A DNA stretch of 24,000 nucleotides, taken from positions 37,687 through 61,686 of the forward strand of contig NZ_CANMZV010000016.1 in assembly GCF_947502415.1 (NCBI RefSeq). Direction: 5' to 3'. Below the pieces are notes generated by a model, which was given only the letters and a program-made list of their open reading frames with translations, did no database searches and was not told the origin of the DNA. Each line of letters begins with the position of its first letter. Positions within the stretch are counted from its first letter, which is position 1. The stretch comes from an uncultured Photobacterium sp. Its GTDB lineage: Bacteria; Pseudomonadota; Gammaproteobacteria; Enterobacterales; Vibrionaceae. The position numbers and the translations under genes are program-made. This document shows positions 516 through 23,718 of this stretch, one piece after another.

Positions 516-2084
516 ATGGAGCCCCAAAATTTTGCCAAGCCTTTTTATCTCTTGCTGCCTCAGCTTACTCACCATATTAACTTCAGGCTTCTTAAGCTCA
601 GTCTGATAGGTACACTGCTTGTCGGCTGCGCTCAACAAATACACCATGAAAAAGAATTCAGTACCGCCATTCCACTCAACCGCAACACAACGTTAGCCAC
701 CTATAGCCGTCCATACCTTGTTGGCACCCCTAACCTCTCAGGGTTTTATCCTCTTGGTGACGGACAGGAAGCGCTGCTGGCGCGGCTCGCCTTAATCCAG
801 AGTGCTGAAAGTAGTATTGATCTTCAGTACTACATCTACCGTGACGACCATACCAGCTCACTGATGACATGGGCGCTCTACCAGGCAGCCGAACGAGGTG
901 TTCGCGTTCGTATATTGCTCGATGACATGCAAGCCCGAGATGATAACGTACTGGCAACCCTCTCCAGCCACCCCAACATTAAACTACGCCTTTTTAATCC
1001 TTTTACGCAACGGACTTTCCGGATGCTCGGATTTGTCGGAGATTTCGACCGCCTGAATCGTCGCATGCACAATAAAGCACTTGTCGCAGATAGCGCCTTT
1101 GCTGTAACCGGAGGCAGAAATATCGGTGACGAATATTTTGCCGCTAACGATGCCGTTGATTTCGGTGATTTTGACCTGCTCCTAATTGGCTCCGCGGTTC
1201 CTGATATCGCCCGTCAGTTTGACCTGTACTGGAACAGCCGCCCAGCCACACCTATCGAGCATCTGGTGGATAATATTCAACCTCCCACACGAGTGCAGCT
1301 ATCACAGTGGCAACAATCATTAGAGAACCGCTTCAAAAATTCAGATTATATCAACGCATTATCCGATCTACCGCTTGCCCAGGAAGTAAAAAATCAATCT
1401 CTGAATTTTTATCTGGCTGAGGCTGAAGTGATTTATGACATGCCATCAAAAGTCTATGCCAAAGATACCAATGCACTGTTACTACACCAGATCTCAGCCG
1501 TCTTACAGCAAGCAAAATCTGACTTTTTGCTGATATCACCTTATTTTGTTCCGACTCAAAACGGCACGGAAGCATTAGTTGAGGCAGCAAGAAAAGGGAT
1601 TAATGTCACCATAATTACTAACTCACTCGCCTCGAATGATGTTTTTGCCGTTCATGGCTGGTATGCGAAATACCGTAAACCACTACTCAAAGGTGGCGTG
1701 AAACTTTACGAAGTTAAAGTCGATTCCAGCCTCAAGAAAGATCGCTCATGGCTAGGTAGCTCCCGAACCAGCCTGCATGCAAAAACATTTATCATTGACC
1801 AGCACAAGATTTTTGTCGGCTCATTTAACTTCGATCCGCGTTCGGCGTATATCAATACTGAAATGGGCGTTTTTCTTGATACACCTGAATTTGTCGAATA
1901 TATTTATCAACAAATGGGAATAGGGCTCATAAAAAACACTTATCGCCTAGAGCTGAATGATGACGAGATTATTTGGGTTGATGACCATACAGGCGTCCGT
2001 TATACCTCAGAGCCCTACGCTGGCTTTTGGTCTCGGTTAGGCGCTTGGTTTTCTGGCCTGATGCCTATCGAAAGCCAGCTATAA
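516..2084 (+). CDS. Phospholipase D family protein (cardiolipin-synthase-like fold), probable lipoprotein
   Basis: There are two HKD motifs, HNKALVADSAFAVTGGRNIGDEY and HAKTFIIDQHKIFVGSFNFDPRS. The hydrophobic N-terminus ends in the lipobox-like LLVGC. The ORF is 522 aa and uninterrupted. Confidence 0.85.
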   Translation: MEPQNFAKPFYLLLPQLTHHINFRLLKLSLIGTLLVGCAQQIHHEKEFSTAIPLNRNTTLATYSRPYLVGTPNLSGFYPLGDGQEALLARLALIQSAESSIDLQYYIYRDDHTSSLMTWALYQAAERGVRVRILLDDMQARDDNVLATLSSHPNIKLRLFNPFTQRTFRMLGFVGDFDRLNRRMHNKALVADSAFAVTGGRNIGDEYFAANDAVDFGDFDLLLIGSAVPDIARQFDLYWNSRPATPIEHLVDNIQPPTRVQLSQWQQSLENRFKNSDYINALSDLPLAQEVKNQSLNFYLAEAEVIYDMPSKVYAKDTNALLLHQISAVLQQAKSDFLLISPYFVPTQNGTEALVEAARKGINVTIITNSLASNDVFAVHGWYAKYRKPLLKGGVKLYEVKVDSSLKKDRSWLGSSRTSLHAKTFIIDQHKIFVGSFNFDPRSAYINTEMGVFLDTPEFVEYIYQQMGIGLIKNTYRLELNDDEIIWVDDHTGVRYTSEPYAGFWSRLGAWFSGLMPIESQL

Positions 2085-2144
2085 CGGCTCAACTCGGCAA
2101 GACCGACCTTTGCCAACTCATACCCTGAGAGAATTCTACGGCAG

Positions 2145-3221
2145 TCAATTATCTTCCGCACCCAGCACGCCCCGGCGGATCTGATCCAGCTCAATGGATT
2201 CAAACAGCGCCTGGAAATTGCCTTCACCAAACCCCTGATTCCCCTTACGCTGAATGATTTCAAAGAAAACAGGACCAATTACGGTATCTGTAAAGATCTG
2301 AAGCAAAATGCCGGTCTCATCACCATCTATCAAGATCTTCAATTCATTCAAACGGGCAACATCTTCCTGATGCCCGGGAAGGCGTTTGTTAACGTTCTCA
2401 TAATAGGTATCCGGCGTATCCATAAAGGCCAGACCGCCATCTTTAAGCTTCTGCACCGTGGTATAAATATCCTGAGTACTTAAAGCGATATGCTGAATCC
2501 CCTCGCCATTATATTGCTCCAGATATTCCGCAATCTGAGACTTATCATCCCTCGATTCATTGATCGGTATCCGGATCTTGCCGCAAGGTGATGTCATTGC
2601 CCGTGACAGCAGGCCGGTCATCTTACCCTTAATATCGAAATGGCGAATTTCCCTGAAATTAGCAATCCTTTCATAAAAAACAGCCCAAACATCCATATTG
2701 CCGCGTTTGACGTTATGGGTAAGGTGATCAATCACTTCCAGGCCAGCATCCTGTTTATCCATCCTCGCTAAGTAATCAGGGTAATAATCGAAATCAATCT
2801 CGTAAATATCATGCTCACCATAACGATCTACCAGATAAATCAATGAGTCACCGATACCGTAAATCGCCGGGATATTCAGCTCCATAGGCCCGGTCTGCGG
2901 GGCACAAATTTTTGCTCCTTTATTAACAGCATAGGCAAGTGCCTGACCGGAGTCGCCCACACGAAACGCCATCGCATTAACACTGGCACCATGCAATCCT
3001 GCAAAACCTGCAGCCTGTGAATGTGATTCACCATTTACAATGAAGTTAATATCACCCTGCCGATACAACCAGACCACCTTGTGCTTATGCTTAGCAACTT
3101 CAGCAAAGCCCATCAGGCGGAACAGGTTCTTCAGCTTTGCTATCCCCTCTGGTGTTGGCGCTGTATATTCAACAAATTCAAAGCCATCCGTTCCCATCGG
3201 ATTATCAATTATCTTGCTCAT
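2145..3221 (-). CDS. hppD: 4-hydroxyphenylpyruvate dioxygenase
   Basis: Full-length similarity to HppD/legiolysin-type enzymes (NPMGTDGFEFVEY..., GIQHIAL, FFEIIQRKG..GFGEGNFQALFESIE). The ORF track begins at a GTG at 3236. I prefer the ATG at 3221 (MSKIID...) because GAGGA lies 8 nt upstream of it. Confidence 0.9.
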   Translation of the reverse strand: MSKIIDNPMGTDGFEFVEYTAPTPEGIAKLKNLFRLMGFAEVAKHKHKVVWLYRQGDINFIVNGESHSQAAGFAGLHGASVNAMAFRVGDSGQALAYAVNKGAKICAPQTGPMELNIPAIYGIGDSLIYLVDRYGEHDIYEIDFDYYPDYLARMDKQDAGLEVIDHLTHNVKRGNMDVWAVFYERIANFREIRHFDIKGKMTGLLSRAMTSPCGKIRIPINESRDDKSQIAEYLEQYNGEGIQHIALSTQDIYTTVQKLKDGGLAFMDTPDTYYENVNKRLPGHQEDVARLNELKILIDGDETGILLQIFTDTVIGPVFFEIIQRKGNQGFGEGNFQALFESIELDQIRRGVLGAEDN

Positions 3222-3526
3222 CCGCATGATCCTCACTTGCTATGATCAATAAGCGTGATCATTCAAACCTGTTACTTATTAATAGGATTAGCAGTTACGG
3301 CATAAGATGAGACATTTGAACCCGAAAGCCTGTTAAGCCAATGTAAATAACGTACGTAAACTCAAATTGCCACTTAAAAAAGTAACCCTACGTAGCATTT
3401 CAACCTGCGCTTCAAGCTAATTTTAGGCCGATGGTAATTAGTAACTTTGCAATCTCGATACCAGTTTCAGAAGCTTTACTCCTCACCTCTAAAGTAGCGA
3501 CTAAGATTTAGTAAAGAGGTGAAAAA

Positions 3527-4498
3527 ATGAATGTAAACAAGCGTGATCAGCTCAAATTACCCAAAAAGAAAAAACCTGAAATATCACTGTCAGCAAACGC
3601 TGACATTTATCTGCCTACTTTCCATTTCTTAAAATCAGAATACAACCATGCCAGACAGCATGAAAAAGGCATTATCCGAGATGATGACGTTGAGTTTCTG
3701 CATCAATACCGGGTTGCCCTCAGGCGCAGCCGTGCATTAATAAGCCTGCTAAAATCCCTGTTCAAACCTGAACAGAAAAACATGCTAAAAGCAGAGCTCA
3801 AAACCATGATGTTAGAAACGAATCTGCTCAGGGATTTGGATGTTTTCCTTATTAAAATGGATGACTACTTCTCATGCCTTGATCACCAGTATCACCAAGG
3901 ACTGACCTGTTTTTTTGACGAATTACAGCACATGCGGAGGAAAACCCACAAAGAACTAAAAAAATGGCTGCGTTCAGATAACTATGACCAACAATGCCAG
4001 TTAGTTAAAGGACTCATTGCCGAACTTGAATTCTGCACAACAGCAAAGGGGCATGCTCACAGCCAGGATTTCGGTAGAGATATAATCTGGAAACATTTTG
4101 ATGAAGTACAAACACTTTGTAATGAACTAACAAGCAACAGTCCGGATCAATCTATCCACGAGCTGCGTATTTGCTGTAAGAAACTACGCTATCTATTGGA
4201 GTATTTCTCCCCAATATTTCCAACAAAAGTCGGCAAAGAACAAATAAAACACCTGAAGCAGCTACAGGATGAACTCGGTGAATTTAATGATTCATCCGTT
4301 CAGCAGCACTTTTTTGAGCATTACCTTAACGATCATCCTGCATCAAACCCAAGCCACGAGGCCATTTCCCAGCTAAAAGCCATCACAGAACGTCACCACA
4401 AAGAGACAAAAAAGCAGGTTATACATCAAATAGGACTTTTTACACATCCTAAGAATATCAAAAGCTACAAAGCCTTATATTTCGCAGGAGCTAAATAA
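3527..4498 (+). CDS. CHAD domain-containing protein (stand-alone, no CYTH domain)
   Basis: Characteristic CHAD motifs are present: HQYRVALRRSRALISLLK, LLRDLDVF and IHELRICCKKLRYLLEYF. AGAGG RBS lies upstream of the ATG. Confidence 0.8.
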   Translation: MNVNKRDQLKLPKKKKPEISLSANADIYLPTFHFLKSEYNHARQHEKGIIRDDDVEFLHQYRVALRRSRALISLLKSLFKPEQKNMLKAELKTMMLETNLLRDLDVFLIKMDDYFSCLDHQYHQGLTCFFDELQHMRRKTHKELKKWLRSDNYDQQCQLVKGLIAELEFCTTAKGHAHSQDFGRDIIWKHFDEVQTLCNELTSNSPDQSIHELRICCKKLRYLLEYFSPIFPTKVGKEQIKHLKQLQDELGEFNDSSVQQHFFEHYLNDHPASNPSHEAISQLKAITERHHKETKKQVIHQIGLFTHPKNIKSYKALYFAGAK

Positions 4499-4501
4499 GA
4501 A

Positions 4502-4522
4502 AAGCCTGACAATATCAGGCTT
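4502..4522. terminator. Bidirectional intrinsic terminator between convergent genes
   Basis: Stem AAGCCTGA (4502-4509) pairs with TCAGGCTT (4515-4522), with a 5-nt loop. The T-rich tract is good on the minus strand (TTTTCTTATTT) and weaker on the plus strand (TTTATATATA). Confidence 0.6.
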
Positions 4523-4562
4523 TATATATAACAACCTACAATAAAGACCAGCTTCTTAAGCC

Positions 4563-5045
4563 TTACGCCTTCAATTCGCGAACAATATCTTGCTCTATAG
4601 ATTCCGGCGCTTTATTCGGGGCAAAACGTTTAATCGGTTTACCATTACGGCCAATCAAAAACTTGGTAAAGTTCCATTTTATTTTTTGACCAAATAATCC
4701 TGGCAATGCTTTCTTCAAATACTGGAAGACTTCGTGGCTTTCTGAACCGTTAACATCAACCTTCTCAAACATCTGGAAATCAACACCGTAGTTTATCTGG
4801 CAAGCTTCAGCTATTTGCTGATTTTCACCCGGCTCCTGACCACCAAATTGATTACATGGAAATCCCAAGATAACCAACCCTTCATCTTTATATTTGGCAT
4901 AAAGCTCCTGCAGCCCTTTATATTGATGAGTAAAACCGCATTCACTAGCCGTATTCACTACCAGCACTACTTGGCCAGCGTATTCATTCATGGAAATTTC
5001 CTCACCGCGAATACTATTCGCAGAGAGTTCATAAAACGTCGTCAT
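4563..5045 (-). CDS. Glutathione peroxidase (BtuE-like, Cys-type)
   Basis: GPx signature NTASECGFT...LGFPCNQFGGQEPG...WNFTKFL. GGAGAAAGG RBS lies upstream. Confidence 0.9.
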   Translation of the reverse strand: MTTFYELSANSIRGEEISMNEYAGQVVLVVNTASECGFTHQYKGLQELYAKYKDEGLVILGFPCNQFGGQEPGENQQIAEACQINYGVDFQMFEKVDVNGSESHEVFQYLKKALPGLFGQKIKWNFTKFLIGRNGKPIKRFAPNKAPESIEQDIVRELKA

Positions 5046-5204
5046 TACCTTTCTCCATTAGCGGAAAAACATTACAAAAAAGCCACCAGCACTAACGCAT
5101 CCCCCCAATTTAGCAAATTTGATTAGAATGATTATTCTATTTATCAATCACAAACAAACAAATACGGAAACAAACGCTAAGAGTAGTCATTAAAACCATT
5201 TAAA

Positions 5205-5218
5205 TTCAACAAGTTGAA
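5205..5218. promoter_or_regulatory. Candidate operator dyad TTCAA-CAAG-TTGAA (distal site in the gpx / yhfZ-like divergent intergenic region)
   Basis: A perfect 5-bp inverted repeat with a 4-bp spacer. It has the same arms and spacing as the sites at 5400-5413 and 14379-14392. Confidence 0.4.
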
Positions 5219-5351
5219 AACAAACACCATCACTCACCCCAGCTCATTCTTTCAAATGTTTTTTTATATTAAGTTCTGAAATGTAAGGCATTCACAATAT
5301 TTGCTACCCCCATCACGCCCTAAAAGCTTAAGTAAGAGCTAGATCTCATAT

Positions 5352-5372
5352 TCTATAAACTGGTCTATAAAC
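5352..5372 (+). promoter_or_regulatory. Tandem direct repeat TCTATAAAC x2 (12-nt period) containing ACTGGTCTA; candidate GntR-type operator
   Basis: TCTATAAAC occurs at 5352-5360 and 5364-5372, about 60-80 nt upstream of the yhfZ-like start. The GTCTATA core resembles HutC/GntR half-sites. Confidence 0.3.
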
Positions 5373-5399
5373 AAGCAGTTTTTGTTGTTATTTTAAACA

Positions 5400-5413
5400 T
5401 TCAAAATATTGAA
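5400..5413. promoter_or_regulatory. Candidate operator dyad TTCAA-AATA-TTGAA immediately upstream of the yhfZ-like start codon
   Basis: A perfect inverted repeat whose 14-mer is identical to the reverse complement of 14379-14392. The surrounding 26 nt (5399-5424) match 14334-14359 at 23/26 positions. Confidence 0.5.
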
Positions 5414-5431
5414 GATTAAAATATTGTTACT

Positions 5432-6328
5432 ATGACAACTCAATACATCAGCAAAGAAGGGGCCGCAATAATTAATATTGCGCGGTATTTAATGACAACT
5501 TCAGTCAATGACCGACTGAGGACCATAGACTCTTTATCTGAAGATATTGGAGTTTCCGTCGGCTTTATTCAAAAAGCATTAAGCACGATAGAAAAACAAG
5601 GCGCTGTCGTATTATCCAAACAGGGCAGGAATGGCACTTTCATTTCTAAACTGGATTATCAGGCTCTGGTTAAGCTTGCCGGTTTTTTCCATGTTGTATG
5701 CGCTATGCCCCTCCCCTACACCAAGCATTATGAGGGCCTTGCCAGCGGACTAAAAAAACAAATTGGAGATTTGCCGCTGTATTTTGCCCACATGCGCGGC
5801 GCAGATGTGCGGGCGGAATGCCTAAAAGCCGGCACTTATGATATTGCCATTATGTCCAAACTGGCGGCGCAAACCTACTCTGACAGCTTTGTTACAGCCA
5901 TAGACCTTGGCAGAAACTCCTATTCGCATGAGCACAGACTTATTTACCGAAGTGGCGAATACGACACAATCAAAAAAGTTGGTGTCGACCAGGATTCACC
6001 AGACCAAAAAATACTCACTCAACTTGTGTTTGAGCATAAGCCAGTAGAAATCGTCGAAATCAATTACGCAGACAGCCTTACACACCTATTACATGGTGAA
6101 ATCGATGCTGTTGTCTGGCTACCTGAAGCTATCGATATGGAAAAATACGGCCTGACGGAACAACCGCTGGATCATATCAAGCAGTGTACCTTAGCCTCTG
6201 AAGCGGTAATGCTGGTCAGCGGGGAAGCGCCGCACATCAGCACGCTGCTCCGTAAGTTAATCAATATTCCTGAGTTACTCGACCACCAACAGCAAGTTGT
6301 CAGGGGCGACATTACCCCTAGCTACTAA
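5432..6328 (+). CDS. yhfZ: YhfZ-like transcriptional regulator (GntR-like wHTH N-terminus plus YhfZ-type C-terminal domain)
   Basis: The N-terminal wHTH (IDSLSEDIGVSVGFIQKALSTIEKQGAVVLSKQGRNGTFI) is followed by a ~220-aa domain. The size (298 aa), and its position at the head of a yhfY-php-yhfU-yhfT-yhfX-yhfW set, match E. coli YhfZ as I recall it. There is no obvious Shine-Dalgarno sequence. Confidence 0.7.
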   Translation: MTTQYISKEGAAIINIARYLMTTSVNDRLRTIDSLSEDIGVSVGFIQKALSTIEKQGAVVLSKQGRNGTFISKLDYQALVKLAGFFHVVCAMPLPYTKHYEGLASGLKKQIGDLPLYFAHMRGADVRAECLKAGTYDIAIMSKLAAQTYSDSFVTAIDLGRNSYSHEHRLIYRSGEYDTIKKVGVDQDSPDQKILTQLVFEHKPVEIVEINYADSLTHLLHGEIDAVVWLPEAIDMEKYGLTEQPLDHIKQCTLASEAVMLVSGEAPHISTLLRKLINIPELLDHQQQVVRGDITPSY

Positions 6329-6349
6329 TTCATACAACAGGAGTGCGCA

Positions 6350-6727
6350 ATGAAGGATCGCCTAACCTTGTTACTACAAGCCAATGTAATCAGCCAGGAT
6401 GCTTATCAGGCTACCTCTTTGGCCGTAGAGCTTATTTCCCGCCATCTCAATGTTGATGAGAGTAATGAACAGTACCAAATGGCCATGACGCATTTGGCAA
6501 GGGCTTATGATCGTATCAAGTCTGGTGATCCTATTGCCGAAGGCTTAGACCCGGACATTTTCGATGAAATTATATCGGACGAGGGTTTTGAACAAATCAA
6601 CGCCCTGAATCAGGAAATACTTGATTCACTTAATATCAGCAATGTTCCGGAAACAGAAAACTCATTTTTACTGAGCAACCTCTTTTCACTGCACTGTGCA
6701 AGCCAAACCAAGGAGGCTGCATGTTGA
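6350..6727 (+). CDS. yhfY: YhfY-like stand-alone PRD-domain protein
   Basis: 125 aa. It has a PRD-like helix with a conserved His (MAMTHLARAYDRIKSG). AGGAG RBS is present. Its stop overlaps the php start (ATGTTGA). Confidence 0.65.
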   Translation: MKDRLTLLLQANVISQDAYQATSLAVELISRHLNVDESNEQYQMAMTHLARAYDRIKSGDPIAEGLDPDIFDEIISDEGFEQINALNQEILDSLNISNVPETENSFLLSNLFSLHCASQTKEAAC

Positions 6728-7599
6728 TTAATAATGCAGGCTATACCTACTGCCATGAGCACCTACATATCGATTTATCACCACAAAAAGGTGATATCGA
6801 CTGTCGTCTTGATCAATATGAACTGATCAAAGATGAAATGCGCGATCTTATTGATCATGGCGTTTATAACATTATCGAAGTAACAAATTCCTTTATGGGA
6901 AGAAATCCTCAATTTATTGAAAGTTTAATATTCGAAACAGGAATAAATGTACTCCTGTCGACCGGATATTACATTGATGGCTTCTTTCCACCTGAGCTTT
7001 ATTCCAAATCAGCCCAACAGATTAGTCAGGAGATGATTAGGGAAATCATTGTCGGCATTGATGGTAGCAACCTTAAAGCCAGTGTCATCGGCGAAATCGG
7101 CAGCAGCGAAAACACCTTCACCGAAACCGAAAAAACTGTCTTTGAAGCTGCGGCAATGGCTCACTACGAAACAGGCCGTCCAATCTCTACCCACCAGTCC
7201 ATGAGCACAATGGGGCGACAGCAAATCGAGTTGTTCAAAAACTTCGGTGTTGATATGGAAAAGGTGACTATCGGCCACTGTGACCTGAAAGATAACCTTG
7301 ATGAAATTCTCTGGTTACTTGACCAGGGCTGCCACATCCAATTCGACACTATCGGTAAAAACTCTTACTACCCGGATACCAAGCGCTTAGCAATGCTCAA
7401 AGCACTGTCCGAGCGCGGTTTACTCGATCGGGTGATGTTATCAATGGATATCACCCGTCGTTCGCACCTGAAACAAAATGGCGGACTGGGCTTTTGCTAC
7501 CTGATCGAAACCTTTGTACCGATGCTCAAAGAAATTGGCATCAGTCAGGTAGAAATCAACGCCATGTTAAAGCACAACCCCTACACACTTTTCCAATAA
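6721..7599 (+). CDS. php: Phosphotriesterase homology protein (amidohydrolase superfamily, cog1735)
   Basis: N-terminal metal-binding HxH motif (GYTYCHEHLHIDLS). 292 aa. TIM-barrel amidohydrolase pattern with later His/Asp ligands (GHCD, SMDI). Confidence 0.85.
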   Translation: MLINNAGYTYCHEHLHIDLSPQKGDIDCRLDQYELIKDEMRDLIDHGVYNIIEVTNSFMGRNPQFIESLIFETGINVLLSTGYYIDGFFPPELYSKSAQQISQEMIREIIVGIDGSNLKASVIGEIGSSENTFTETEKTVFEAAAMAHYETGRPISTHQSMSTMGRQQIELFKNFGVDMEKVTIGHCDLKDNLDEILWLLDQGCHIQFDTIGKNSYYPDTKRLAMLKALSERGLLDRVMLSMDITRRSHLKQNGGLGFCYLIETFVPMLKEIGISQVEINAMLKHNPYTLFQ

Positions 7600-7626
7600 A
7601 AATAAGTTAAACAGAAGGTTCCCGTT

Positions 7627-7986
7627 ATGAAAAAGATTGGTATTGCAGGACTACAACGCGAGCAAATCAAAGAACAAATTGATATGGCATCACCCGGCCA
7701 ATTTGAATGCCACATCCTCAATGACATGGATGCTGCAATGAAAGTGAAATCTGGCGAGCTTGATTACTACATCGGTTGTTGTAACACCGGCGCAGGCGCT
7801 GCGCTGTCCATCGCTATCGCTATTATTGGCTTCACCCAGAGCTGCACTATTGCCAAACCAGCAATAAAAGCCAAACAAGATGAAGTTCAACGCTTCATTG
7901 ACGAAGGCAAAGTAGCCTTCGGCTTATCCGTTGAACATATTGAACACGCAGTCCCCATGCTCGTCACTTCACTCGCTAATAAATAA
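7627..7986 (+). CDS. yhfU: YhfU-like protein (DUF2620 family)
   Basis: 119 aa with the motif MKKIGIAGLQREQIK...DYYIGCCNTGAGAALSIAIA. It sits between php and the yhfT-like membrane gene, as in E. coli. Confidence 0.7.
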   Translation: MKKIGIAGLQREQIKEQIDMASPGQFECHILNDMDAAMKVKSGELDYYIGCCNTGAGAALSIAIAIIGFTQSCTIAKPAIKAKQDEVQRFIDEGKVAFGLSVEHIEHAVPMLVTSLANK

Positions 7987-7995
7987 GGCTATCAC

Positions 7996-9297
7996 ATGGA
8001 CATAATGCAAATCGGCTTAGTTGCCACGCTCTGTGCCATGACGGCACTTATCGCCAACATGAGCGCTTCTGTCTTCCATGACGGGATACGCCCAATACTG
8101 CCACAGCTGGTCGAAGGAAACATGACACGACGCGATGCCGGTTCTGTGGCTTTCGGCTTGTCGATCGGCTTTGTTGCCTCTGTCGGGATATCTTTCACCT
8201 TGTCGACAGGACTGCTCAACCCCTGGCTGCTATTCCTTCCTACCGATATCATCGGAGTCATGCTCGGAAGCCGATTACTTGCGGCGATTGGAGGTGGTTT
8301 ATGGGGCGTTCTTGTCGTCACCTCACTCAGTGGTGTTAATGCCGTATTAACCGGGTTACCTATAGACGCTCTGGGTGCGCTGGGCGAGCTTGGTACACCA
8401 GTCATGACCGCTTTTGCCTTGTTCCCGCTACTGGCTATTTTCTACCAATTTGGCTGGAAAGCAGGAGCTCTAGCCAGTGCCGTCGTTCTGGTATCTCGGT
8501 TACTGATCATAAAATATACGGGCATCTATCCAGAATCTATCCAGATTTTTGTTGGTATGGTAATGCTTGTCGGAACCGCCATCCATAAAGACATCCAAAA
8601 CAAAAATAACGGGATCAATCCACCCGATATGTCCGGCATGCATAGCCTGTTTGAAGAGCGCACCAAGCGAATCATGAAGAACATGCCATTTCTGGCTGCA
8701 ACAGGTGCACTCATCGCAATCGTGGCCAATGCGGGTATTTTTGCCGGCTCAGAAGTCTCTATTTATTCTCTGGCTGACGCATACAAAATCGCCGACCCAA
8801 TTGAGCAAGATGCCGCAATCAAACAAGTCGCTCTTTCTGAATTCATGCGCGGCCTTGGCTTTGTGCCACTCATCGCCACAACAGCACTGGCTACCGGGGT
8901 ATACGGTGTCGTCGGTATGACCTTTGTGTTCGTCGTCGGCTACCTGGCGCCAAACATTCCCGTTGCAGCCTTGCTCGGCGCAATCACTATCTGCATTGAA
9001 ATTGTCCTGCTTCGTAAAATTGGCCACTTCCTGGAGCAATTCCCATCGATCCGCAACGCTTCGGATAACATTCGAAACTCAATGAATACCCTGATGGAGT
9101 TTGCATTACTGATTGGCGGAGTGCTGGCTGTAATGAAAATGGGATCAACAACCGGCCTGACCATCTTCACTGTTCTGTTCTTCCTTAACGAAGTCATGGG
9201 ACGCCCGATCCTCAAAATCGCAGCACCGGCGGTTGCCGCCATCCTAACCGGTATTGCACTGAATGTGCTGTACGTATTCGGTCTGTTCGCTATCTAG
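7996..9297 (+). CDS. yhfT: YhfT-like polytopic inner-membrane protein, putative transporter
   Basis: 433 aa, highly hydrophobic with roughly 10 or more predicted TM segments. Its size and context match YhfT. Confidence 0.75.
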   Translation: MDIMQIGLVATLCAMTALIANMSASVFHDGIRPILPQLVEGNMTRRDAGSVAFGLSIGFVASVGISFTLSTGLLNPWLLFLPTDIIGVMLGSRLLAAIGGGLWGVLVVTSLSGVNAVLTGLPIDALGALGELGTPVMTAFALFPLLAIFYQFGWKAGALASAVVLVSRLLIIKYTGIYPESIQIFVGMVMLVGTAIHKDIQNKNNGINPPDMSGMHSLFEERTKRIMKNMPFLAATGALIAIVANAGIFAGSEVSIYSLADAYKIADPIEQDAAIKQVALSEFMRGLGFVPLIATTALATGVYGVVGMTFVFVVGYLAPNIPVAALLGAITICIEIVLLRKIGHFLEQFPSIRNASDNIRNSMNTLMEFALLIGGVLAVMKMGSTTGLTIFTVLFFLNEVMGRPILKIAAPAVAAILTGIALNVLYVFGLFAI

Positions 9298-9308
9298 TTA
9301 ACGGGTAA

Positions 9309-9376
9309 AAGAGCCAGTCTGACTTCCCCTTCCACAATCATGGTGACGTAATGGTTACCCTTGTGGACTGGCTCTT
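9309..9376 (+). other. Structured intercistronic inverted repeat between the yhfT-like and yhfX-like genes
   Basis: AAGAGCCAGT (9309-9318) pairs with ACTGGCTCTT (9367-9376). An inner stem pairs CCACAA (9332-9337) with TTGTGG (9361-9366). The 5' side carries an asymmetric bulge of about 13 nt. No U-tract follows. Confidence 0.5.
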
Positions 9377-9399
9377 ATCGTCATTAAAAAGGTGCTTAT

Positions 9400-10578
9400 A
9401 TGTTTCTAAATACGTTAATACAACAAAATCCGGCACTGATTGACGGAGCCATTAAGCTGCTTGAAGATGGGTCGATCCTGCCCGATACCTATGTCATCGA
9501 TGTCGACCAGTTCAAAGAAAATGCCCGTTTAATAAAAGACAAAGCCGATAGTTATGGCATTCATCTCTATGGCATGACCAAACAATTTGGCCGAAATCCA
9601 ATGTTAGCAAAAATGCTTGTCGATGAACTGGGATACGATGGTATTGTCTGCGTCGATTTCAAAGAGGCCCGGCAACTTCACAAAGCCGGAGTGAAAATTG
9701 GCCACATAGGCCACTTAGTTCAACCTCCGAGTCGCTACATTCCTTTTATCGTTTCCGAGATCAAACCAGAAGTCATCACTGTTTATTCCATTGAAAAAGC
9801 ACGAGAGGTTTCAGCCGCTGCTCAACAGGCCAACCGAACCCAAGGCATACTGCTGAAGTTCTTCCGTTCCAGTGATCAGCTGTACCCTAACCAGGAAGCA
9901 GGCTTTCCCATCGAATCACTCGAAGGGGTCATTTCCCAAATTTCTGCCCTACCGAACCTTCATATTTCGGGACTGACCCATTTTCCCTGCTTCCTCTATA
10001 ACCCTAAAACACATAGTACTGAGCCAACACCGAATATCAAGACACTATACGCGGCTAAACAACAAGCTGACGAACTGGGTTACCGTTTCACTCAACTCAA
10101 TTCCCCTTCAGCAACCTGCTGCGAAACCATACCGAATATTAAGCACTTCTCCGGAACGCACGGTGAACCGGGTCATGCCCTGACCGGAACCATTCCTGCC
10201 AATCTGGATGGCAGTCAGCCGGAAAAGATCGCCATGCTGTATATCAGCGAAGTCTCGCACCATTTCGGGAGAAAAAGTTATTGCTACGGTGGCGGCTATT
10301 ACAGCCGAAGCCAATTAACCAGTGCACTAATCCGAGAACAAATACAGGCCGAAACCAAAGATACGATCGTCAATATCAGCAACGGGGATGAATCCAATAT
10401 CGACTATTACCTACAGTTCGATTCGCCCTGCGCTATTGGGACTCCTGTCGTCATGGCCTTTCGCACACAAGTTTTTGTTACACGAAGTGATGTTGCTCTT
10501 GTCGAGGGACTATCAAGCAATGCTCCGAAGCTGCTTGGTTTATTCGATGCACAAGGTAATGAGGTGATACATGGCTAA
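9400..10578 (+). CDS. yhfX: YhfX-like PLP-dependent enzyme (alanine-racemase N-terminal fold family)
   Basis: 392 aa. The N-terminal TIM-like region and C-terminal beta domain are arranged as in alanine racemase or ornithine decarboxylase fold type III. AAGGTG RBS is present. The gene overlaps the next gene by 8 nt. Confidence 0.65.
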   Translation: MFLNTLIQQNPALIDGAIKLLEDGSILPDTYVIDVDQFKENARLIKDKADSYGIHLYGMTKQFGRNPMLAKMLVDELGYDGIVCVDFKEARQLHKAGVKIGHIGHLVQPPSRYIPFIVSEIKPEVITVYSIEKAREVSAAAQQANRTQGILLKFFRSSDQLYPNQEAGFPIESLEGVISQISALPNLHISGLTHFPCFLYNPKTHSTEPTPNIKTLYAAKQQADELGYRFTQLNSPSATCCETIPNIKHFSGTHGEPGHALTGTIPANLDGSQPEKIAMLYISEVSHHFGRKSYCYGGGYYSRSQLTSALIREQIQAETKDTIVNISNGDESNIDYYLQFDSPCAIGTPVVMAFRTQVFVTRSDVALVEGLSSNAPKLLGLFDAQGNEVIHG

Positions 10579-11830
10579 ATTTATTGTCGTGGTATTAGAT
10601 GGTTTTGGCATTGGTGAAATGCCGGATGTTGCAACAGTCCGCCCACAAGATCTGGGCGCCAATACGGCAGGAAAACTACTGAATCATTTTCCGCTCAAAA
10701 GGCTCCCGACACTGGAAAAACTAGGGCTAATCAATATTGTCGGCGCAACTAACTCGGTGATGAACCTCGCTCCAGACGCAAACTGGGGAAAATCAAAGCT
10801 CGCTCACTACGGATGTGACACTTTCATGGGTCACCAGGAAATCATGGGCACACACCCCAAGCCGCCCATGATCAAACCGTTTCAGCAATCCATTGATGAT
10901 ATAGAAGAAGCGCTCAATCTAGCCGGCTATCAAGTTGAGCGAATCAGCCGGAAACAACTGCAATTACTGATGGTCAATGGCAGTGTTGTAATCGGTGATA
11001 ACCTTGAAGCCGATCTGGGTCAAGTCTATAACCTGACAGCGAATTTCGGCCAGATCAGTTTCGATGACGTCAAAAAAATCGGACAAGTAGTTCGTTCTGC
11101 CAATGCGGTAAGTCGCAATATCGCTTTTGGTGGATTCGTCCCGACAATACAGAACATCCTGAATGCCATAGAAACCAAAACCGATAAAAGTGGCAAGGAA
11201 TTGTATATCGGTGTCAATGCGCCCGATTCCGGTACTTACGACAATGGATTCCAGGTTGTCCACCTTGGCTATGGTGTCAATGCCAAAACCCAAGTGCCCT
11301 ATCAGCTGAATCAAGCAGGTATTCATACTTACCTCTACGGTAAAGTTGCCGATATTGTCCAGAACGACACCGGCACATCTTTTACCTCTGTCGTTGATAC
11401 CGATCGAGTTTTCGAACTGCTAATCAATGATCTGCACCAATACGATAAAGGTTTTTTCTGCGCCAATGTGCAGGAAACTGATCTCTCCGGCCACCAGCAG
11501 GATCCCAAGCGCTACTGGACAATTTTAGAAAAAGCAGATCGGGGATTAGCTTCGGTAATCGCTGAGATGGAGCAAGGGGATATGCTGGTTGTCATGGCCG
11601 ACCATGGTAATGACCCATTCATCGGCCATACCAAACATACCCGAGAACAAGTGCCGTTGATGGTCTATAGCCCCGGAGTAAAAGGCGTTCAGCTCGATAC
11701 CTGCGAAACGATGGCCGATATTGGTGCCAGCGTCGCAGCTTACTTTGGCGCCCCTTTCCCAGAATTCGGTTGTCCGGTGATAGCAACGAAAATCAAGAGG
11801 GCAACCCCCACACTCTCAGAAGCGTTCTAA
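10571..11830 (+). CDS. yhfW: YhfW-like phosphopentomutase-family metalloenzyme
   Basis: The N-terminus (KFIVVVLDGFGIGEMPD) and the ADHGNDP motif are typical of the DeoB/phosphopentomutase (alkaline phosphatase superfamily) group. 419 aa. Confidence 0.8.
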   Translation: MAKFIVVVLDGFGIGEMPDVATVRPQDLGANTAGKLLNHFPLKRLPTLEKLGLINIVGATNSVMNLAPDANWGKSKLAHYGCDTFMGHQEIMGTHPKPPMIKPFQQSIDDIEEALNLAGYQVERISRKQLQLLMVNGSVVIGDNLEADLGQVYNLTANFGQISFDDVKKIGQVVRSANAVSRNIAFGGFVPTIQNILNAIETKTDKSGKELYIGVNAPDSGTYDNGFQVVHLGYGVNAKTQVPYQLNQAGIHTYLYGKVADIVQNDTGTSFTSVVDTDRVFELLINDLHQYDKGFFCANVQETDLSGHQQDPKRYWTILEKADRGLASVIAEMEQGDMLVVMADHGNDPFIGHTKHTREQVPLMVYSPGVKGVQLDTCETMADIGASVAAYFGAPFPEFGCPVIATKIKRATPTLSEAF

Positions 11831-14150: not shown

Positions 14151-14182
14151 ATGGTCGCGATATTTTGTCGCGACCATTTTTT
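14151..14182 (+). terminator. Rho-independent terminator
   Basis: A perfect 10-bp stem, ATGGTCGCGA (14151-14160) with TCGCGACCAT (14168-14177), followed by TTTTTT. Confidence 0.85.
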
Positions 14183-14334
14183 GTTAGTCCAGACTAAAGG
14201 AAAAAAATAAAAACAAACCTCATAAACAACATAAAAGTTCATTCTAGATTAAGGTGCAAATATTACACCACCTAACAAATGTAATACTTACAAACATATC
14301 AAAACAAGTGGAATTTAATTCACAAAAACATATA

Positions 14335-14348
14335 TTCAAAATATTGAG
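14335..14348. promoter_or_regulatory. Candidate operator dyad TTCAA-AATA-TTGAG (one arm mismatch) upstream of the PTS operon
   Basis: 13/14 identical to 5400-5413. The extended segment 14334-14359 matches 5399-5424 at 23/26 positions. Confidence 0.45.
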
Positions 14349-14378
14349 GATAAGAATATGTGAGCGCAAACATTTATT

Positions 14379-14392
14379 TTCAATATTTTGAA
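14379..14392. promoter_or_regulatory. Candidate operator dyad TTCAA-TATT-TTGAA upstream of the PTS operon (inverted copy)
   Basis: The exact reverse complement of the 14-mer at 5400-5413. It is 44 bp centre-to-centre from the 14335-14348 site and about 54 nt upstream of the IIB start. Confidence 0.5.
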
Positions 14393-14445
14393 AATTAATA
14401 TTCATATGTACCCTAACCTATTAAAGAAATACAAGGATGACCACT

Positions 14446-14757
14446 ATGAATATATTCCTATGCTGCTCCGCAGGCATGTCTACCAGTATGCTGGTAAAAA
14501 AAATGCAAGATGCAGCCAAGAGCCAAGGTATCGAATGTTCTATTAACGCTTATTCTATTTCTGAGTTTGAACCAGCCCTTGCTGAAAATGATGTCTGCCT
14601 GGTTGCCCCTCAGGTTAAATTCCAATATGAACAGTTTAAATCCAGAGCAGAAGAAAAAGGCAAAGCATGCGGACTTATTGAAATGATGGATTACGGCATG
14701 ATGAAAGGTGACGTCATTCTTAAGCAAGCTGTAGAACTCTACAACTCAATAAAGTAA
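14446..14757 (+). CDS. PTS lactose/cellobiose-family EIIB component
   Basis: MNIFLCCSAGMSTSMLVKKMQ contains the phospho-Cys loop typical of ChbB/CelA-type IIB. The ORF track starts at 14437. I prefer the ATG at 14446 because AAGGA lies 8 nt upstream of it. Confidence 0.9.
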   Translation: MNIFLCCSAGMSTSMLVKKMQDAAKSQGIECSINAYSISEFEPALAENDVCLVAPQVKFQYEQFKSRAEEKGKACGLIEMMDYGMMKGDVILKQAVELYNSIK

Positions 14758-14767
14758 GGAATACATA

Positions 14768-16093
14768 ATGAGTATCTTTAATAAGGTCATGCAGTTTGTG
14801 GAAGCTGTTGTCGCCCCCATGGCGGCAAAGGTTTCCTGCCAGCGCCATATTAATGCAATCAAAGATGGTTTCGTCGCCACAATGCCATTTTTGATTGTCG
14901 GCTCCCTGTTACTTGTTTTAGCCTTCCCACCGGGAGAAGGAAACTTCTTCCTCGACGGCTGGCACTCTTTAGTAGACAAGATCGGCCAGCAAAACATCCT
15001 CGCATCTTTCCAGATCAGCATGGGTATCTTTGCTGTCTATGCCGCTTTCAGTATCGGCTATAACCTCGCAGAATCATATGGTCTTCGCTCCCTGAACTCC
15101 GGCCTGTTATCCTTGTTCACCTTCCTGCTGGCAGTTGCTCCGGTGCAGTTCATTGATGATATCGGTGGCATTATGCCAATCGCTAACATGGGCGGTACCG
15201 GTGCGTTTACCGCCATTCTTACAGGCTTATTAGTGCCTGAACTACAGCGGTTCTTACGAGACAAAAACATTCGCCTGAAAATGCCAGATGCCGTACCACC
15301 AAAAATTTCAGCGTCATTTGACCTGCTCATTCCGGTTGTGATTGTTTGTATTGTCGTTGTTTCGATTAATGCCATGCTATCAAACTATGATCTGAACATC
15401 CCAACCGCCATTATGGAGATCTTCAAACCACTAGTTTCAGCCTCTGACTCGTTCTTTGCCTGTCTGCTGGCAGTTATCATGATTCAGCTACTGTGGTTCG
15501 GTGGTATTCACGGTTCATCCGTTGTTGTTACCGGGATATTGTATCCGGTTTTAATTATCAACCTTGGACTAAACCAGGAAGCATTGGCAGCAGGTCAGGA
15601 ACTGCCTAAAATATTCGTAAACCCAATTCTGGATTTCTTTATTTTCGTTGGTGGTGCTGGTGGCACATGGGGTTTTGTTGTATTGATGATGCGTTCTAAA
15701 TCAACTCACCTTCGTACTATCGGTAAAATGTCGATTATTCCAAGTACATTTAACATTAATGAACCAGTTATTTTCGGCACCCCAATTGTAATGAACCCTA
15801 ACTATTTCATTCCTTGGATGCTATCGCCAATGATTAATACCTGTATCGTTTGGGCAGCATTTAAAACGGAAATAATTTCAAAAATTATTGCCTTACCTCC
15901 CTGGACAATGCCTGCGCCTATCGGTGCTGTAATTGCAACAAATTCAAGTACAGCCGCATTTGTTGTTGTCCTCTGTGTTCTTGTCAGTGTCATTATTTAT
16001 TATCCGTTCTTCAAGATTCACGAAAAGCAACTTCTTGAAGAAGAAAAAGCGACTGAAGAACAGGAAATGGAATTAAAACCATCTAAGGCCTAA
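14768..16093 (+). CDS. PTS lactose/cellobiose-family EIIC permease
   Basis: 441 aa polytopic protein with ChbC/CelB-like motifs (INAIKDGF, LLWFGGIHG, INEPVIFGTPIVMNP, PWTMPAPIG). Confidence 0.9.
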   Translation: MSIFNKVMQFVEAVVAPMAAKVSCQRHINAIKDGFVATMPFLIVGSLLLVLAFPPGEGNFFLDGWHSLVDKIGQQNILASFQISMGIFAVYAAFSIGYNLAESYGLRSLNSGLLSLFTFLLAVAPVQFIDDIGGIMPIANMGGTGAFTAILTGLLVPELQRFLRDKNIRLKMPDAVPPKISASFDLLIPVVIVCIVVVSINAMLSNYDLNIPTAIMEIFKPLVSASDSFFACLLAVIMIQLLWFGGIHGSSVVVTGILYPVLIINLGLNQEALAAGQELPKIFVNPILDFFIFVGGAGGTWGFVVLMMRSKSTHLRTIGKMSIIPSTFNINEPVIFGTPIVMNPNYFIPWMLSPMINTCIVWAAFKTEIISKIIALPPWTMPAPIGAVIATNSSTAAFVVVLCVLVSVIIYYPFFKIHEKQLLEEEKATEEQEMELKPSKA

Positions 16094-16095
16094 TC

Positions 16096-16467
16096 ATGAC
16101 ATTTGAAATTAACAAGCAAGAAGATATCACCGAAGAATTTTTGATGACGCTGCTCTGTAAAGTTGGAGAAGCACGAGCATCATTAATGAATGCCATTTCT
16201 TTAGCTAAAAAAGGTGACTTTGCCCAGTCTGAAGAAATGATTGCCATTGCAGATGATGCTCTGGCCGATGTCCACCGGACACAGACAGGACTTATTGGCT
16301 TTGATGAAGGAGAAGGAAAAGTCACTATGACTTTAATCCTGACCCATATTCAGGACCACATAATGACGACCATGCTATGTCGTGATTTGGCAACAGAAAT
16401 CATTGCGATCCACTCGATTATCGCTAACAAAGAGGAATTGTCAGAAAATGAAAAAGCGTATATTTGA
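16096..16467 (+). CDS. PTS lactose/cellobiose-family EIIA component
   Basis: 123 aa helical protein with the ChbA-like pattern (GEARASLMNAI..AKKGDF..AE..I..A...L..VHRTQT...LTHIQDHIMTT), including the conserved His region. Confidence 0.85.
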   Translation: MTFEINKQEDITEEFLMTLLCKVGEARASLMNAISLAKKGDFAQSEEMIAIADDALADVHRTQTGLIGFDEGEGKVTMTLILTHIQDHIMTTMLCRDLATEIIAIHSIIANKEELSENEKAYI

Positions 16468-17338
16468 TTTAACACGCCACGATATCGCCAATATGAGTCG
16501 TACCGATATTGTCGATTGCATCCGTCGCTCTGAAGGGCGTTCCATGATGGTTGAAAATGTCACCTCTATGGCTCCGCCGGTTGACCTCGTCTCCGGAGCC
16601 GAAATTGCCGCCGCCTTTGGCGCTGACATGATCACCCTCAACTGCCTCGATCTAATGGAACCTCGCGCGGAAGTTAACGGTGCAGCAGATCATGGAAGCG
16701 CTGATCATTTCACCGTACAAGAACTCAAACAGCTTTCCGGACGCATGATCGGCTGTAACCTGGAGCCCGTGCCTCAAGGCTTCACCGATATCAATATCGG
16801 CCGTTCATTAACAAAAGAGACCGTTGAAAAGGCTGTTGAACTCGGCATGAACTACATCATGCTGACAGGTAACCCGGGAATGATGGTCTCGCAAGAAACA
16901 ATTCTTAATGCGATAGCACTCACCCGCGAAGTATCGAAAGACATCCTGATCATCGCCGGCAAAATGCACGGAGGCGGCGTAGGTAACGACTATAACCTGG
17001 AATTCATTCCTCAATTTGCAGAAGCTGGCGCTGACATCATGATGTTCCCGGCTCCTTACACGACTCCAGGAATGAACCCGGCGCTAGCCTCAACGGTCAT
17101 GGATGCAGTCCATGAAGCCGGTATGCTGGGTATGCTTGCCATTGGAACCTCACAAGAGGGCGCTTCAGAAAGTTATATCGAAAAGGTCACCATTGAATCT
17201 AAAGGCGCGGGAGCTGATATCGTTCACATTGGCGATGGCGGCTACGGTGGCATTGCTGTTCCGGAAAATATCATGCGAATGGGCATCACACTACGTGGCA
17301 GACGCCACCAGTTCAAACGCATGGCTAACCATCGCTAA
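16448..17338 (+). CDS. Uncharacterised 296-aa protein, probable alpha/beta (TIM-barrel-like) enzyme, fourth gene of the PTS operon
   Basis: Start chosen at the ATG at 16448 (MKKRIFDL...), which overlaps the IIA stop by 20 nt. The ORF-track extension from 16382 would run through the IIA coding sequence. Alternating beta/alpha pattern with Gly-rich loops (LTGNPG, IIAGKMHGGG, GADIVHIGDGGYGG). I recognise no family with confidence. Confidence 0.7.
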   Translation: MKKRIFDLTRHDIANMSRTDIVDCIRRSEGRSMMVENVTSMAPPVDLVSGAEIAAAFGADMITLNCLDLMEPRAEVNGAADHGSADHFTVQELKQLSGRMIGCNLEPVPQGFTDINIGRSLTKETVEKAVELGMNYIMLTGNPGMMVSQETILNAIALTREVSKDILIIAGKMHGGGVGNDYNLEFIPQFAEAGADIMMFPAPYTTPGMNPALASTVMDAVHEAGMLGMLAIGTSQEGASESYIEKVTIESKGAGADIVHIGDGGYGGIAVPENIMRMGITLRGRRHQFKRMANHR

Positions 17339-17552: not shown

Positions 17553-18131
17553 ATGACTAACTTACTCAAAGAACTGGAAAAGATGGGACTTAACTCTCTG
17601 AGCTTCACTGAGCAGGAAACCTCTTTGCTGGAACAATTTATCGATCATAGTTCAGCGTTCTTTGACAATGTCTGCCAACACAAGCCGGATAAACCACCCC
17701 ATGATATGGCTCTGGGGCTACTTACCAAAGCTCACCAAGAAGCATTCGATAATTATCAGGCCACCCAGCCAAAAATTTCCGAACTTCAAACTATGTTCAC
17801 CGATAACGTCGGCGCCGAACATGCCAGCAAGTTTTCAACACTCAATCAGGCCGAGCTTAGTGTTATTTCATCATTGTGGTTTATGGCACAAGGCTTCACT
17901 GGTATTGATTTCAGCTATGCCAATGATAAAGCAGCAGAAACAGCCGAGCTGCTCACAGAGAATCAAACGTCAACAGAAGATACAAAAAAGAAGTCGATAA
18001 AGAATAGTGAAGATTATCGTTCATTGTTTATGAAAGCTTACTACACAGGCATTGATGCGGCACATCAGAATCAACCACACCTATCATTTTTGTTAACAAT
18101 CAAAAACTATCTAAAACACCTGTTTAAATAG
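17553..18131 (+). CDS. Hypothetical protein (192 aa), no recognisable domain
   Basis: A long ORF with plausible composition and no signal peptide. The RBS is weak or absent. A competing 112-aa ORF in another frame looks like low-complexity noise. Confidence 0.5.
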   Translation: MTNLLKELEKMGLNSLSFTEQETSLLEQFIDHSSAFFDNVCQHKPDKPPHDMALGLLTKAHQEAFDNYQATQPKISELQTMFTDNVGAEHASKFSTLNQAELSVISSLWFMAQGFTGIDFSYANDKAAETAELLTENQTSTEDTKKKSIKNSEDYRSLFMKAYYTGIDAAHQNQPHLSFLLTIKNYLKHLFK

Positions 18132-23700: not shown

Positions 23701-23718
23701 CGCGATTCTTCGCACTTT

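Follow-up and report, generated by a model that had tools for sequence, protein, structure and literature searches.

The closest described counterpart of the locus reported here is the yhf cluster of Escherichia coli K-12 (b3383 to b3376), a long-standing gene block that has remained without an assigned function despite solved structures of Php, YhfX, and YhfZ. Its gene order, given in an earlier note on the present DNA as yhfZ-yhfY-yhfX-yhfW-php-yhfU-yhfT-yhfS (hereafter Z-Y-X-W-php-U-T-S), agrees with NC_000913.3, and the K-12 RefSeq record still lists the yhf products as "putative" or "uncharacterized." Among relatives of Php, the phospho-sugar lactonases Lmo2620 and Bh0225 of COG1735 have been described (Xiang et al. 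2012, Biochemistry 51:1762, as cited in PMC4191879). We compared these systems with a yhf/php locus in a 24,000-nt stretch of contig NZ_CANMZV010000016.1 from an uncultured Photobacterium sp. (the window), in which seven intact consecutive open reading frames (ORFs) occupy positions 5432 to 11830 of the plus strand, exactly as the earlier note had placed them. The locus is the Vibrionaceae-type form of a known but uncharacterized operon. The window sequence itself brings nothing new, and its worth lies in the comparison that it prompted, which yields testable leads, among them a candidate operator for the regulator YhfZ, a neighboring phosphotransferase system (PTS) operon ending in a DUF7916 gene as a probable regulon partner, and a fold assignment for the DUF2620 protein YhfU. 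The searched literature contained no functional study, no expression or biochemical data, and no substrate for the yhf genes, DUF2620, or DUF7916, in line with the note's statement that no substrate has been assigned; mentions of yhfZ in connection with sigma-54 and BIME elements were uninformative, and none of the yhf, DUF2620, or DUF7916 proteins is named in the main text of a paper on chitin proteomics in Aeromonas.

All seven window proteins align over their full length with their E. coli K-12 counterparts in BLASTP, at nearly equal lengths and with identities of 44% (YhfZ), 31% (YhfY; E = 1e-15), 60% (Php), 72% (YhfU), 61% (YhfT), 50% (YhfX), and 53% (YhfW), and profile searches against Pfam and NCBIfam assign them to the families given in the earlier note. 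The one-to-one orthology and the close protein lengths proposed in the earlier note are thereby borne out. At the nucleotide level the window has no match to E. coli genomes, so the likeness exists only in the proteins. The window YhfT and YhfU are 100% identical to NCBI proteins recorded under "uncultured Photobacterium sp."; an exact-sequence lookup of the window YhfT returned no record. The genes are closely packed, with overlaps of 7 nt (yhfY/php) and 8 nt (yhfX/yhfW) and gaps of 21 nt (Z-Y), 27 nt (php-U), 9 nt (U-T), and 102 nt (T-X). The eighth E. coli gene, yhfS, is missing as the note had said: a tblastn search with E. coli YhfS gave no match in the window (best E = 0.15).

To place this arrangement, we surveyed 80 genomic loci encoding YhfT relatives, with 10 kb of flanking sequence each, assigning genes by tblastn and by clustering of all ORFs. 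The order Z-Y-php-U-T-X-W without yhfS is standard in Photobacterium, Vibrio, Enterovibrio, Thaumasiovibrio, and Aeromonas (about 30 of the 80 loci), and what the earlier note had called a rearrangement is therefore the norm of the lineage. Enterobacterales have Z-Y-X-W-php-U-T, with or without S, and a Sebaldella genome has Z-Y-php-U-T-S-X-W; W is missing in most Yersinia loci, and some Serratia and Shimwellia loci have php-U-T only. The note's division into three modules (ZY, php-U-T, and XW) does not hold exactly. Vibrio barjaei and V. mediterranei have the order Z-php-U-T-Y-X-W, so that Y goes with X-W, and only yhfU and yhfT are neighbors in every locus having both. The invariant core is U-T by itself, as shown by Enterovibrio, where the cluster comes in two parts, Z-Y-php-U-T and U-T-X-W. 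In Enterovibrio coralii and E. qingdaonensis these halves lie at separate loci (L007/L067 and L009/L035 of the survey), each with its own yhfU-yhfT pair. The yhfS gene was found in 22 of 82 loci, which makes it accessory and its absence the commoner state, and in none of 34 Vibrionaceae and Aeromonas loci searched within 10 kb on either side; distant clusters, Firmicute-like and others, carry an amidase gene in addition to yhfS.

The yhf cluster and its PTS neighbor share a candidate regulatory sequence. The 24-kb window contains three copies of the 13-mer TTCAAAATATTGA, where 0.15 would be expected, and only at the yhfZ and PTS promoters: one copy begins 32 nt ahead of the yhfZ start codon, and the other two form an inverted pair 57 to 102 nt ahead of the PTS IIB gene, within 22-nt inverted arms. 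Across the upstream regions of all loci, the palindrome ATCTTCA-N6-TGAAGAT lies just ahead of yhfZ in Vibrionaceae, Enterobacterales, and Fusobacteria; many Enterobacteriaceae, including E. coli, have two tandem copies there, and Enterobacterales carry another one ahead of yhfX. The 1.63 Mb of locus sequence contains 190 exact TTCA-N6-TGAA cores. Of these, 80 are no more than 120 nt upstream of a yhfZ start and account for 62 of 77 Z genes, and 19 lie upstream of X; IIB has a core within the same upstream distance in 4 of 8 loci (background, about 0.05 per kb). Palindrome copies are visible upstream of IIB in the window and in loci L026, L027, and L034. From these positions we infer that the palindrome is the YhfZ operator, and its presence ahead of the PTS-DUF7916 genes as well suggests that yhf and the adjacent PTS-DUF7916 operon form one regulon.

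Two side observations touch on this motif. In Photobacterium lipolyticum, P. frigidiphilum, and P. sagamiensis (L013, L014, and L022), tblastn located a second YhfZ paralogue adjoining the PTS-DUF7916 operon, with a similar but degenerate motif upstream; in L022, where its position is resolved, this paralogue is divergent from the PTS genes and is followed by a second php, which hints at a duplicated yhf-like system. Within php itself, the sequence ATCCTCAATTTATTGAAA (about positions 6909 to 6926, codons 64 to 69) resembles the yhfZ operator, and most php genes of Vibrionaceae keep it at this position; either an internal regulatory role or mere coding constraint on the residues NPQFIE could explain it.

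The PTS genes match Pfam PTS_IIB, PTS_EIIC, and PTS_IIA, and the last gene of the operon matches DUF7916. IIC scores 366 bits against TIGR00410 (cut-off, 236), which places it in the lactose/cellobiose subfamily; the cellobiose- and chitobiose-specific cut-offs are not reached, and IIA is nearest to ChbA (98 bits). The DUF7916 ORF as listed starts at GTG 16382, its probable start is at 16448, and it ends at 17338. In the seven loci with this operon beside yhf, DUF7916 is always its last gene, and its sequences are 74 to 78% identical to one another; a DUF7916 profile found only weak, nonsignificant TIM-barrel hits in the PDB (a DHDPS-like aldolase, E = 0.11; NanE, E = 0.25). The set IIB-IIC-IIA-DUF7916 stands beside yhf in at least five arrangements: it may be downstream, convergent with yhf, upstream in the same orientation, divergent from Z, or separated from yhf by the gene for a secreted protein with a carbohydrate-binding module (CBM), CBM5/12. 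That gene, in turn, is found with yhf in four genera, namely, Photobacterium, Aeromonas, Thaumasiovibrio, and (in one case) Enterobacter. With this recurrence, and with the yhfZ palindrome at the PTS promoter, the earlier note's suggestion that the neighbors offer a clue to context gains substance. Wider links are consistent with it. A PRD-only protein is present in every yhf cluster type; in a distant metagenome-assembled genome (GCA_031556335.1, locus L083, positions 528 to 9131) the order U-T-php-Y-S-X-W is followed by Enzyme I (EI) and HPr, with the EI start overlapping the W stop, so that a cluster with its own EI and HPr points to PTS-driven phosphorylation; and the flanking genes of another distant cluster (L087, Y-W-X-U-T) encode a GH18/CBM4_9 enzyme and a GntR/UTRA regulator.

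The operon probably extends beyond yhfW to the CBM5/12 gene. A terminator scan found only weak stems of 5 to 6 pairs between the yhfZ start and position 14151, and it placed no terminator in the 106 nt that separate yhfW from the CBM5/12 gene; the first strong terminator-like site after the yhfZ start is the hairpin at 14151 to 14186, behind that gene. Since no terminator separates it from yhfW, and since 9 of the 11 loci that have it show it immediately behind yhfW in the same orientation, the CBM5/12 gene is probably the eighth member of the operon. Its product ends in a CBM_5_12 domain (Pfam, E = 9e-11), a module type that binds polymers of N-acetylglucosamine (GlcNAc). The N-terminal part, about 300 residues, is an orphan domain with 18 homologues among 5.8 billion proteins, none of which matches a Pfam family in this region; one homologue has a LysM domain and one has RTX repeats. 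The domain may represent an undescribed family of glycan-active enzymes.

Within the operon, the 102 nt that separate yhfT from yhfX form a long hairpin (positions 9309 to 9377), with a minimum free energy (MFE) of -29.3 kcal/mol. Hairpins with unrelated stem sequences are found in the T-X spacers of other loci (z below -2 in 25 of 34; median, -2.55). We rejected an intrinsic terminator and a known RNA family, with no T-run behind the hairpin in the window and no Rfam match anywhere in the window. We read the hairpin as a putative intercistronic stabilizer or attenuator-like element that would set the relative expression or stability of the two operon halves.

Conservation was assessed from alignments of 69 to 80 orthologues per protein, with a position counted as conserved when kept in at least 97% of sequences. 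The proteins have 57 to 107 such positions each, except for the short and divergent YhfY with only 8, and every predicted catalytic residue is among them. YhfZ scores 351.7 bits against NCBIfam NF041241 (YhfZ_full; cut-off, 260) and matches Pfam HTH_41 and YhfZ_C, the C-terminal domain aligning with PDB 2ozz at E = 3e-56. YhfY just reaches the Pfam PRD model (25 bits; cut-off, 23; E = 2e-5), and its His48 is invariant across 71 orthologues. Php matches the PTE family (Pfam, 314.8 bits; E = 8e-94), with E. coli PHP (PDB 1bf6 and 4lef, E of about 1e-116) as its best structural matches; its score against NCBIfam PRK09875, 465.4 bits, is slightly below the cut-off of 486. The HxH motif expected by the earlier note is present as H12-E13-H14, and the metal ligands H12, H14, E125, H158, H186, and D243, with Glu125 as the bridge, are invariant across 80 orthologues. 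YhfX carries Ala_racemase_N and YhfX-like_C domains (Pfam), matches the YhfX structure PDB 4kbx at E = 1e-121, and has an invariant Lys61 across 75 orthologues. YhfW scores 584 bits against PRK12383 (cut-off, 254) and matches Pfam Metalloenzyme and the Bacillus cereus phosphopentomutase (PDB 3m8w, E = 2e-36), and the phosphopentomutase-like set D10, T94, D304, H308, D344, H345, and H356 is invariant across 69 orthologues. Its score against the DeoB model TIGR01696 is 149 bits, compared with a cut-off of 341, and YhfW is thus not DeoB itself.

For YhfU (DUF2620, PF10941; E = 2e-48), structure modeling (pLDDT, 95.7) predicts the fold of ribose-5-phosphate isomerase B (RpiB). The top 22 Foldseek matches in the PDB are all RpiB, at probability 1.0 and with query-normalized TM scores of 0.59 to 0.75. 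In an hhalign comparison the YhfU loop Cys52-Asn-Thr54-Gly-Ala-Gly pairs with the catalytic RpiB loop Cys66-Gly-Thr68-Gly-Val-Gly; Cys52 and Thr54 are invariant in the orthologue alignment, and a subthreshold match to Pfam LacAB_rpiB (14 bits versus 24.7) spans the same loop residues. DUF2620 is a small family, for which a set of 1.84 billion proteins yields 146 representatives at the 50% identity level, and 10 of the 11 distant members examined keep a C-x-[ST]-G core, the exception being a Cys-less stand-alone paralogue with no YhfT partner. In this paralogue (L097 to L099, positions 10001 to 10360), Phe-His replaces the conserved Cys; its gene sits between dapF/lptM and cyaY, a context that makes the genomes look enterobacterial. 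We considered whether YhfU might be a classical EIIB; the fold search gives this no support, with no EIIB among the top 50 Foldseek hits, but the P-loop-like Cys motif of YhfU and the EI and HPr genes within the L083 cluster would fit an EIIB-like protein phosphorylated on Cys. The membrane protein YhfT matches its Pfam family (PF10797) at E = 1e-154, and its structure model (pLDDT, 83) resembles no solved structure in the PDB (Foldseek; best E = 0.17, TM scores of at most 0.18).

We tentatively read yhf as an inducible, PTS-linked catabolic operon for a sugar or sugar-phosphate derivative bearing an amino or amino-acid group, probably from a chitin-like polymer, and give this reading somewhat less than an even chance. 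YhfZ would bind the palindromes whose positions we describe at its own promoter and at the PTS-DUF7916 promoter and would sense an effector through its C-terminal domain, and YhfY may signal the PTS phosphorylation state to YhfZ through the invariant His48. Outside the cell, the secreted CBM5/12 protein would act on an insoluble glycan and in this way should produce the substrate. The product would enter through the lactose/cellobiose-type PTS, being phosphorylated during entry, and/or through YhfT as a permease. Php would then cleave an ester, lactone, or amide bond, YhfX would carry out pyridoxal 5'-phosphate (PLP) chemistry at the amino-bearing carbon, and YhfW would shift or transfer a phosphate through Thr94. 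YhfU may be a sugar-phosphate isomerase-like enzyme or else a phospho-cysteine carrier partnered with YhfT, and yhfS would be an optional extra step missing from this lineage. The substrate class proposed in the earlier note, a phosphorylated sugar with an amino group, would be plausible.

Several observations weigh against this reading. Its steps past the sequence features are our own deductions, and the yhf cluster contains no kinase. E. coli and most other Enterobacterales have no PTS or CBM gene adjacent to yhf. The close Photobacterium relatives L002, L003, and L032 keep only IIC beside yhf, and L004 keeps the CBM gene and IIC, so yhf persists without a complete adjoining PTS; the associations within Vibrionaceae are, moreover, partly inherited and not independent events. 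The proteins themselves add further points. We rejected Php as a member of the Lmo2620-type lactonase family, since it scores 88.9 bits against NF045706, whose cut-off is 630; the lactonase analogy drawn in the earlier note is no more than a lead. YhfU has Leu9-Gln10 where RpiB has Asp9-His10, and lacks the C-terminal phosphate-binding helix, and its His residues are not kept in distant DUF2620 members; without Asp9-His10 and about 30 C-terminal residues, it is not an RpiB family member in the strict sense. For YhfT, which has no PDB match, neither a known type of PTS EIIC nor another known transporter fold is supported.

Some of these observations would fit incidental neighbors and a self-contained yhf, in which YhfT imports a nonphosphorylated compound resembling an amino acid (e.g., the lactam, lactone, or ester of a D- or L-amino acid) that Php opens, YhfX racemises or eliminates, and the PRD protein exerts only general catabolite control. 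The lack of nearby PTS or CBM genes in most Enterobacterales loci, E. coli included, the loss of IIB, IIA, and DUF7916 from close Photobacterium relatives, the persistence of php-U-T alone in some Serratia and Shimwellia, and the membership of YhfX in the alanine racemase fold family all speak for it. We nevertheless judge it unlikely, given that the intact phospho-Thr/metal site of YhfW and the RpiB-like YhfU point to sugar-phosphate chemistry, that the operator motif is common to the PTS promoter, and that in L083 the translation of EI and HPr is coupled to that of W. Further in the other direction, yhf could be an unrecognized PTS-dependent module that passes phosphate from EI and HPr to YhfY and to YhfU and/or YhfW Thr94, with YhfT as a new group-translocating or PTS-gated permease and, as substrate, an amino-sugar conjugate that a secreted enzyme with a catalytic domain outside all known families would free from chitin-like material; we think this quite unlikely.

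Three further explanations concern what the operon might degrade, or whether it degrades anything. A set in which sugar-phosphate enzymes (W and U) stand next to a hydrolase and to PLP enzymes of the amino-acid type (X and, in other loci, S) would suit amino acids that are glycated or bound in opine-like sugar conjugates (compounds of the Amadori or Heyns type, or the lactones of these), handled as by frl and gfr and with no role for chitin, and distant clusters do contain an amidase. The E. coli K-12 cluster also abuts frlABCDR, but this adjacency is confined to E. coli, and we dropped it as a functional clue since other Enterobacteriaceae have different conserved genes behind yhfS. With no FrlB- or FrlD-type deglycase or kinase, and with the recurrent CBM5/12 and GH18 neighbors left unexplained, we hold such a role to be decidedly unlikely. 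Uptake and degradation of peptidoglycan or another amino-sugar-peptide fragment, in which the secreted protein would cut the glycan and the peptide or D-amino-acid part would fall to the amidase, the hydrolase, and the racemase-like enzyme, would account for the LysM domain of one orphan-domain homologue, the amidase genes of distant clusters, the racemase-fold PLP enzyme, and the affinity of CBM5/12 modules for GlcNAc polymers. It is improbable, however, as no cluster contains a MurQ-, AnmK-, NagZ-, or AmpD-type gene, the amidase is absent from both the window and E. coli, and the catalytic nature of the orphan domain is only putative. We know of no yhf phenotype from studies of E. coli, and the searched literature returned nothing functional, as a cryptic or decaying remnant without current function would predict; seven intact ORFs with their catalytic residues kept, and a gene order and operator conserved over three phyla, make a remnant very improbable. 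Returning to the PTS-linked catabolic operon that we favor, marine Vibrionaceae with the full set of genes would be better models than E. coli for finding its substrate.

The features of the window are collected in Table 1. Two further features lie beyond the PTS operon. A 192-aa ORF at positions 17553 to 18131 has no family match and occupies the same position in Photobacterium loci L002, L003, L004, and L032, and on the minus strand, positions 20060 to 23973 encode two beta-ketoacyl synthases, a short-chain ketoreductase, and an ApeP-like dehydratase, a set that resembles part of a cluster for lipid biosynthesis of the aryl-polyene type.

Table 1. Coordinates of the yhf/php locus and its neighbors in the 24,000-nt window
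Feature	Position	Strand	Details
Candidate YhfZ operator	5397..5416	.	ACATTCAAAATATTGAAGAT; family consensus ATCTTCA-N6-TGAAGAT; ends 16 nt ahead of yhfZ ATG
yhfZ, GntR-like regulator	5432..6328	+	HTH_41 and YhfZ_C ligand-binding-type domain
yhfY, stand-alone PRD protein, 125 aa	6350..6727	+	Pfam PRD; without nucleic-acid-binding domain
php, binuclear-metal amidohydrolase	6721..7599	+	Pfam PTE family
yhfU, DUF2620, predicted RpiB/LacAB-like fold	7627..7986	+	Invariant Cys52-Asn-Thr-Gly-Ala-Gly loop
yhfT, polytopic membrane protein, presumed permease	7996..9297	+	Pfam YhfT; always adjoins yhfU
yhfT-yhfX intercistronic stem-loop	9309..9377	+	MFE -29.3 kcal/mol; no T-run behind
yhfX, fold-type-III PLP enzyme	9400..10578	+	Pfam Ala_racemase_N and YhfX-like_C
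yhfW, phosphopentomutase-like metalloenzyme	10571..11830	+	Pfam Metalloenzyme; PRK12383
Secreted CBM5/12 protein, 727 aa	11937..14120	+	Orphan N-terminal domain and C-terminal CBM5/12
Intrinsic-terminator-like hairpin with T-run	14151..14186	+	12-pair stem, 6 G-C pairs, then TTTTTTGT
Two inverted operator-like copies ahead of PTS operon	14332..14395	.	Exact 13-mers at 14335-14347 (+) and 14380-14392 (-)
Lactose/cellobiose-family PTS and DUF7916	14437..17338	+	IIB 14437-14757, IIC 14768-16093, IIA 16096-16467, DUF7916 16448-17338

Set against the known systems, the window locus is closest to the E. coli K-12 cluster, with which it shares seven of eight genes as orthologues in the same Pfam and NCBIfam families and the same palindrome upstream of yhfZ. 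It differs from that cluster in its order, Z-Y-php-U-T-X-W without yhfS; in having one operator copy upstream of Z, where E. coli has two, and none upstream of X; and in its structured T-X spacer and the attached CBM5/12 gene and PTS-DUF7916 operon. Php has the same PTE-family (beta/alpha)8 binuclear-metal fold as the phospho-sugar lactonases of COG1735 and matches PDB 3pnz, which we take to be Lmo2620, at E = 2e-27; in contrast to the phospho-furanose lactonases, it falls in the E. coli PHP type of subfamily. YhfU resembles RpiB and LacAB (E. coli RpiB, PDB 2vvr) in its predicted fold and its Cys-x-Thr-Gly-x-Gly loop, but it is 30 residues shorter and is always encoded beside the membrane protein YhfT.

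The regulatory and transport genes recall PTS operons. As in PRD-controlled PTS operons, whether governed by BglG/LicT antiterminators or by MtlR/LevR-type activators, a PRD with a conserved His lies near or is linked to a PTS; unlike those regulators, YhfY consists of a PRD and has no domain for binding RNA or DNA, so that DNA binding would come from the separate YhfZ in a "split" arrangement. The IIB-IIC-IIA genes belong to the same PTS family as those of the chitobiose operon chbBCARFG and stand here beside a protein with a chitin-binding module; unlike the chb system, the window PTS reaches no equivalog cut-off, and its operon has neither a GH4 phospho-glucosidase nor a ChbG deacetylase and ends instead in DUF7916.

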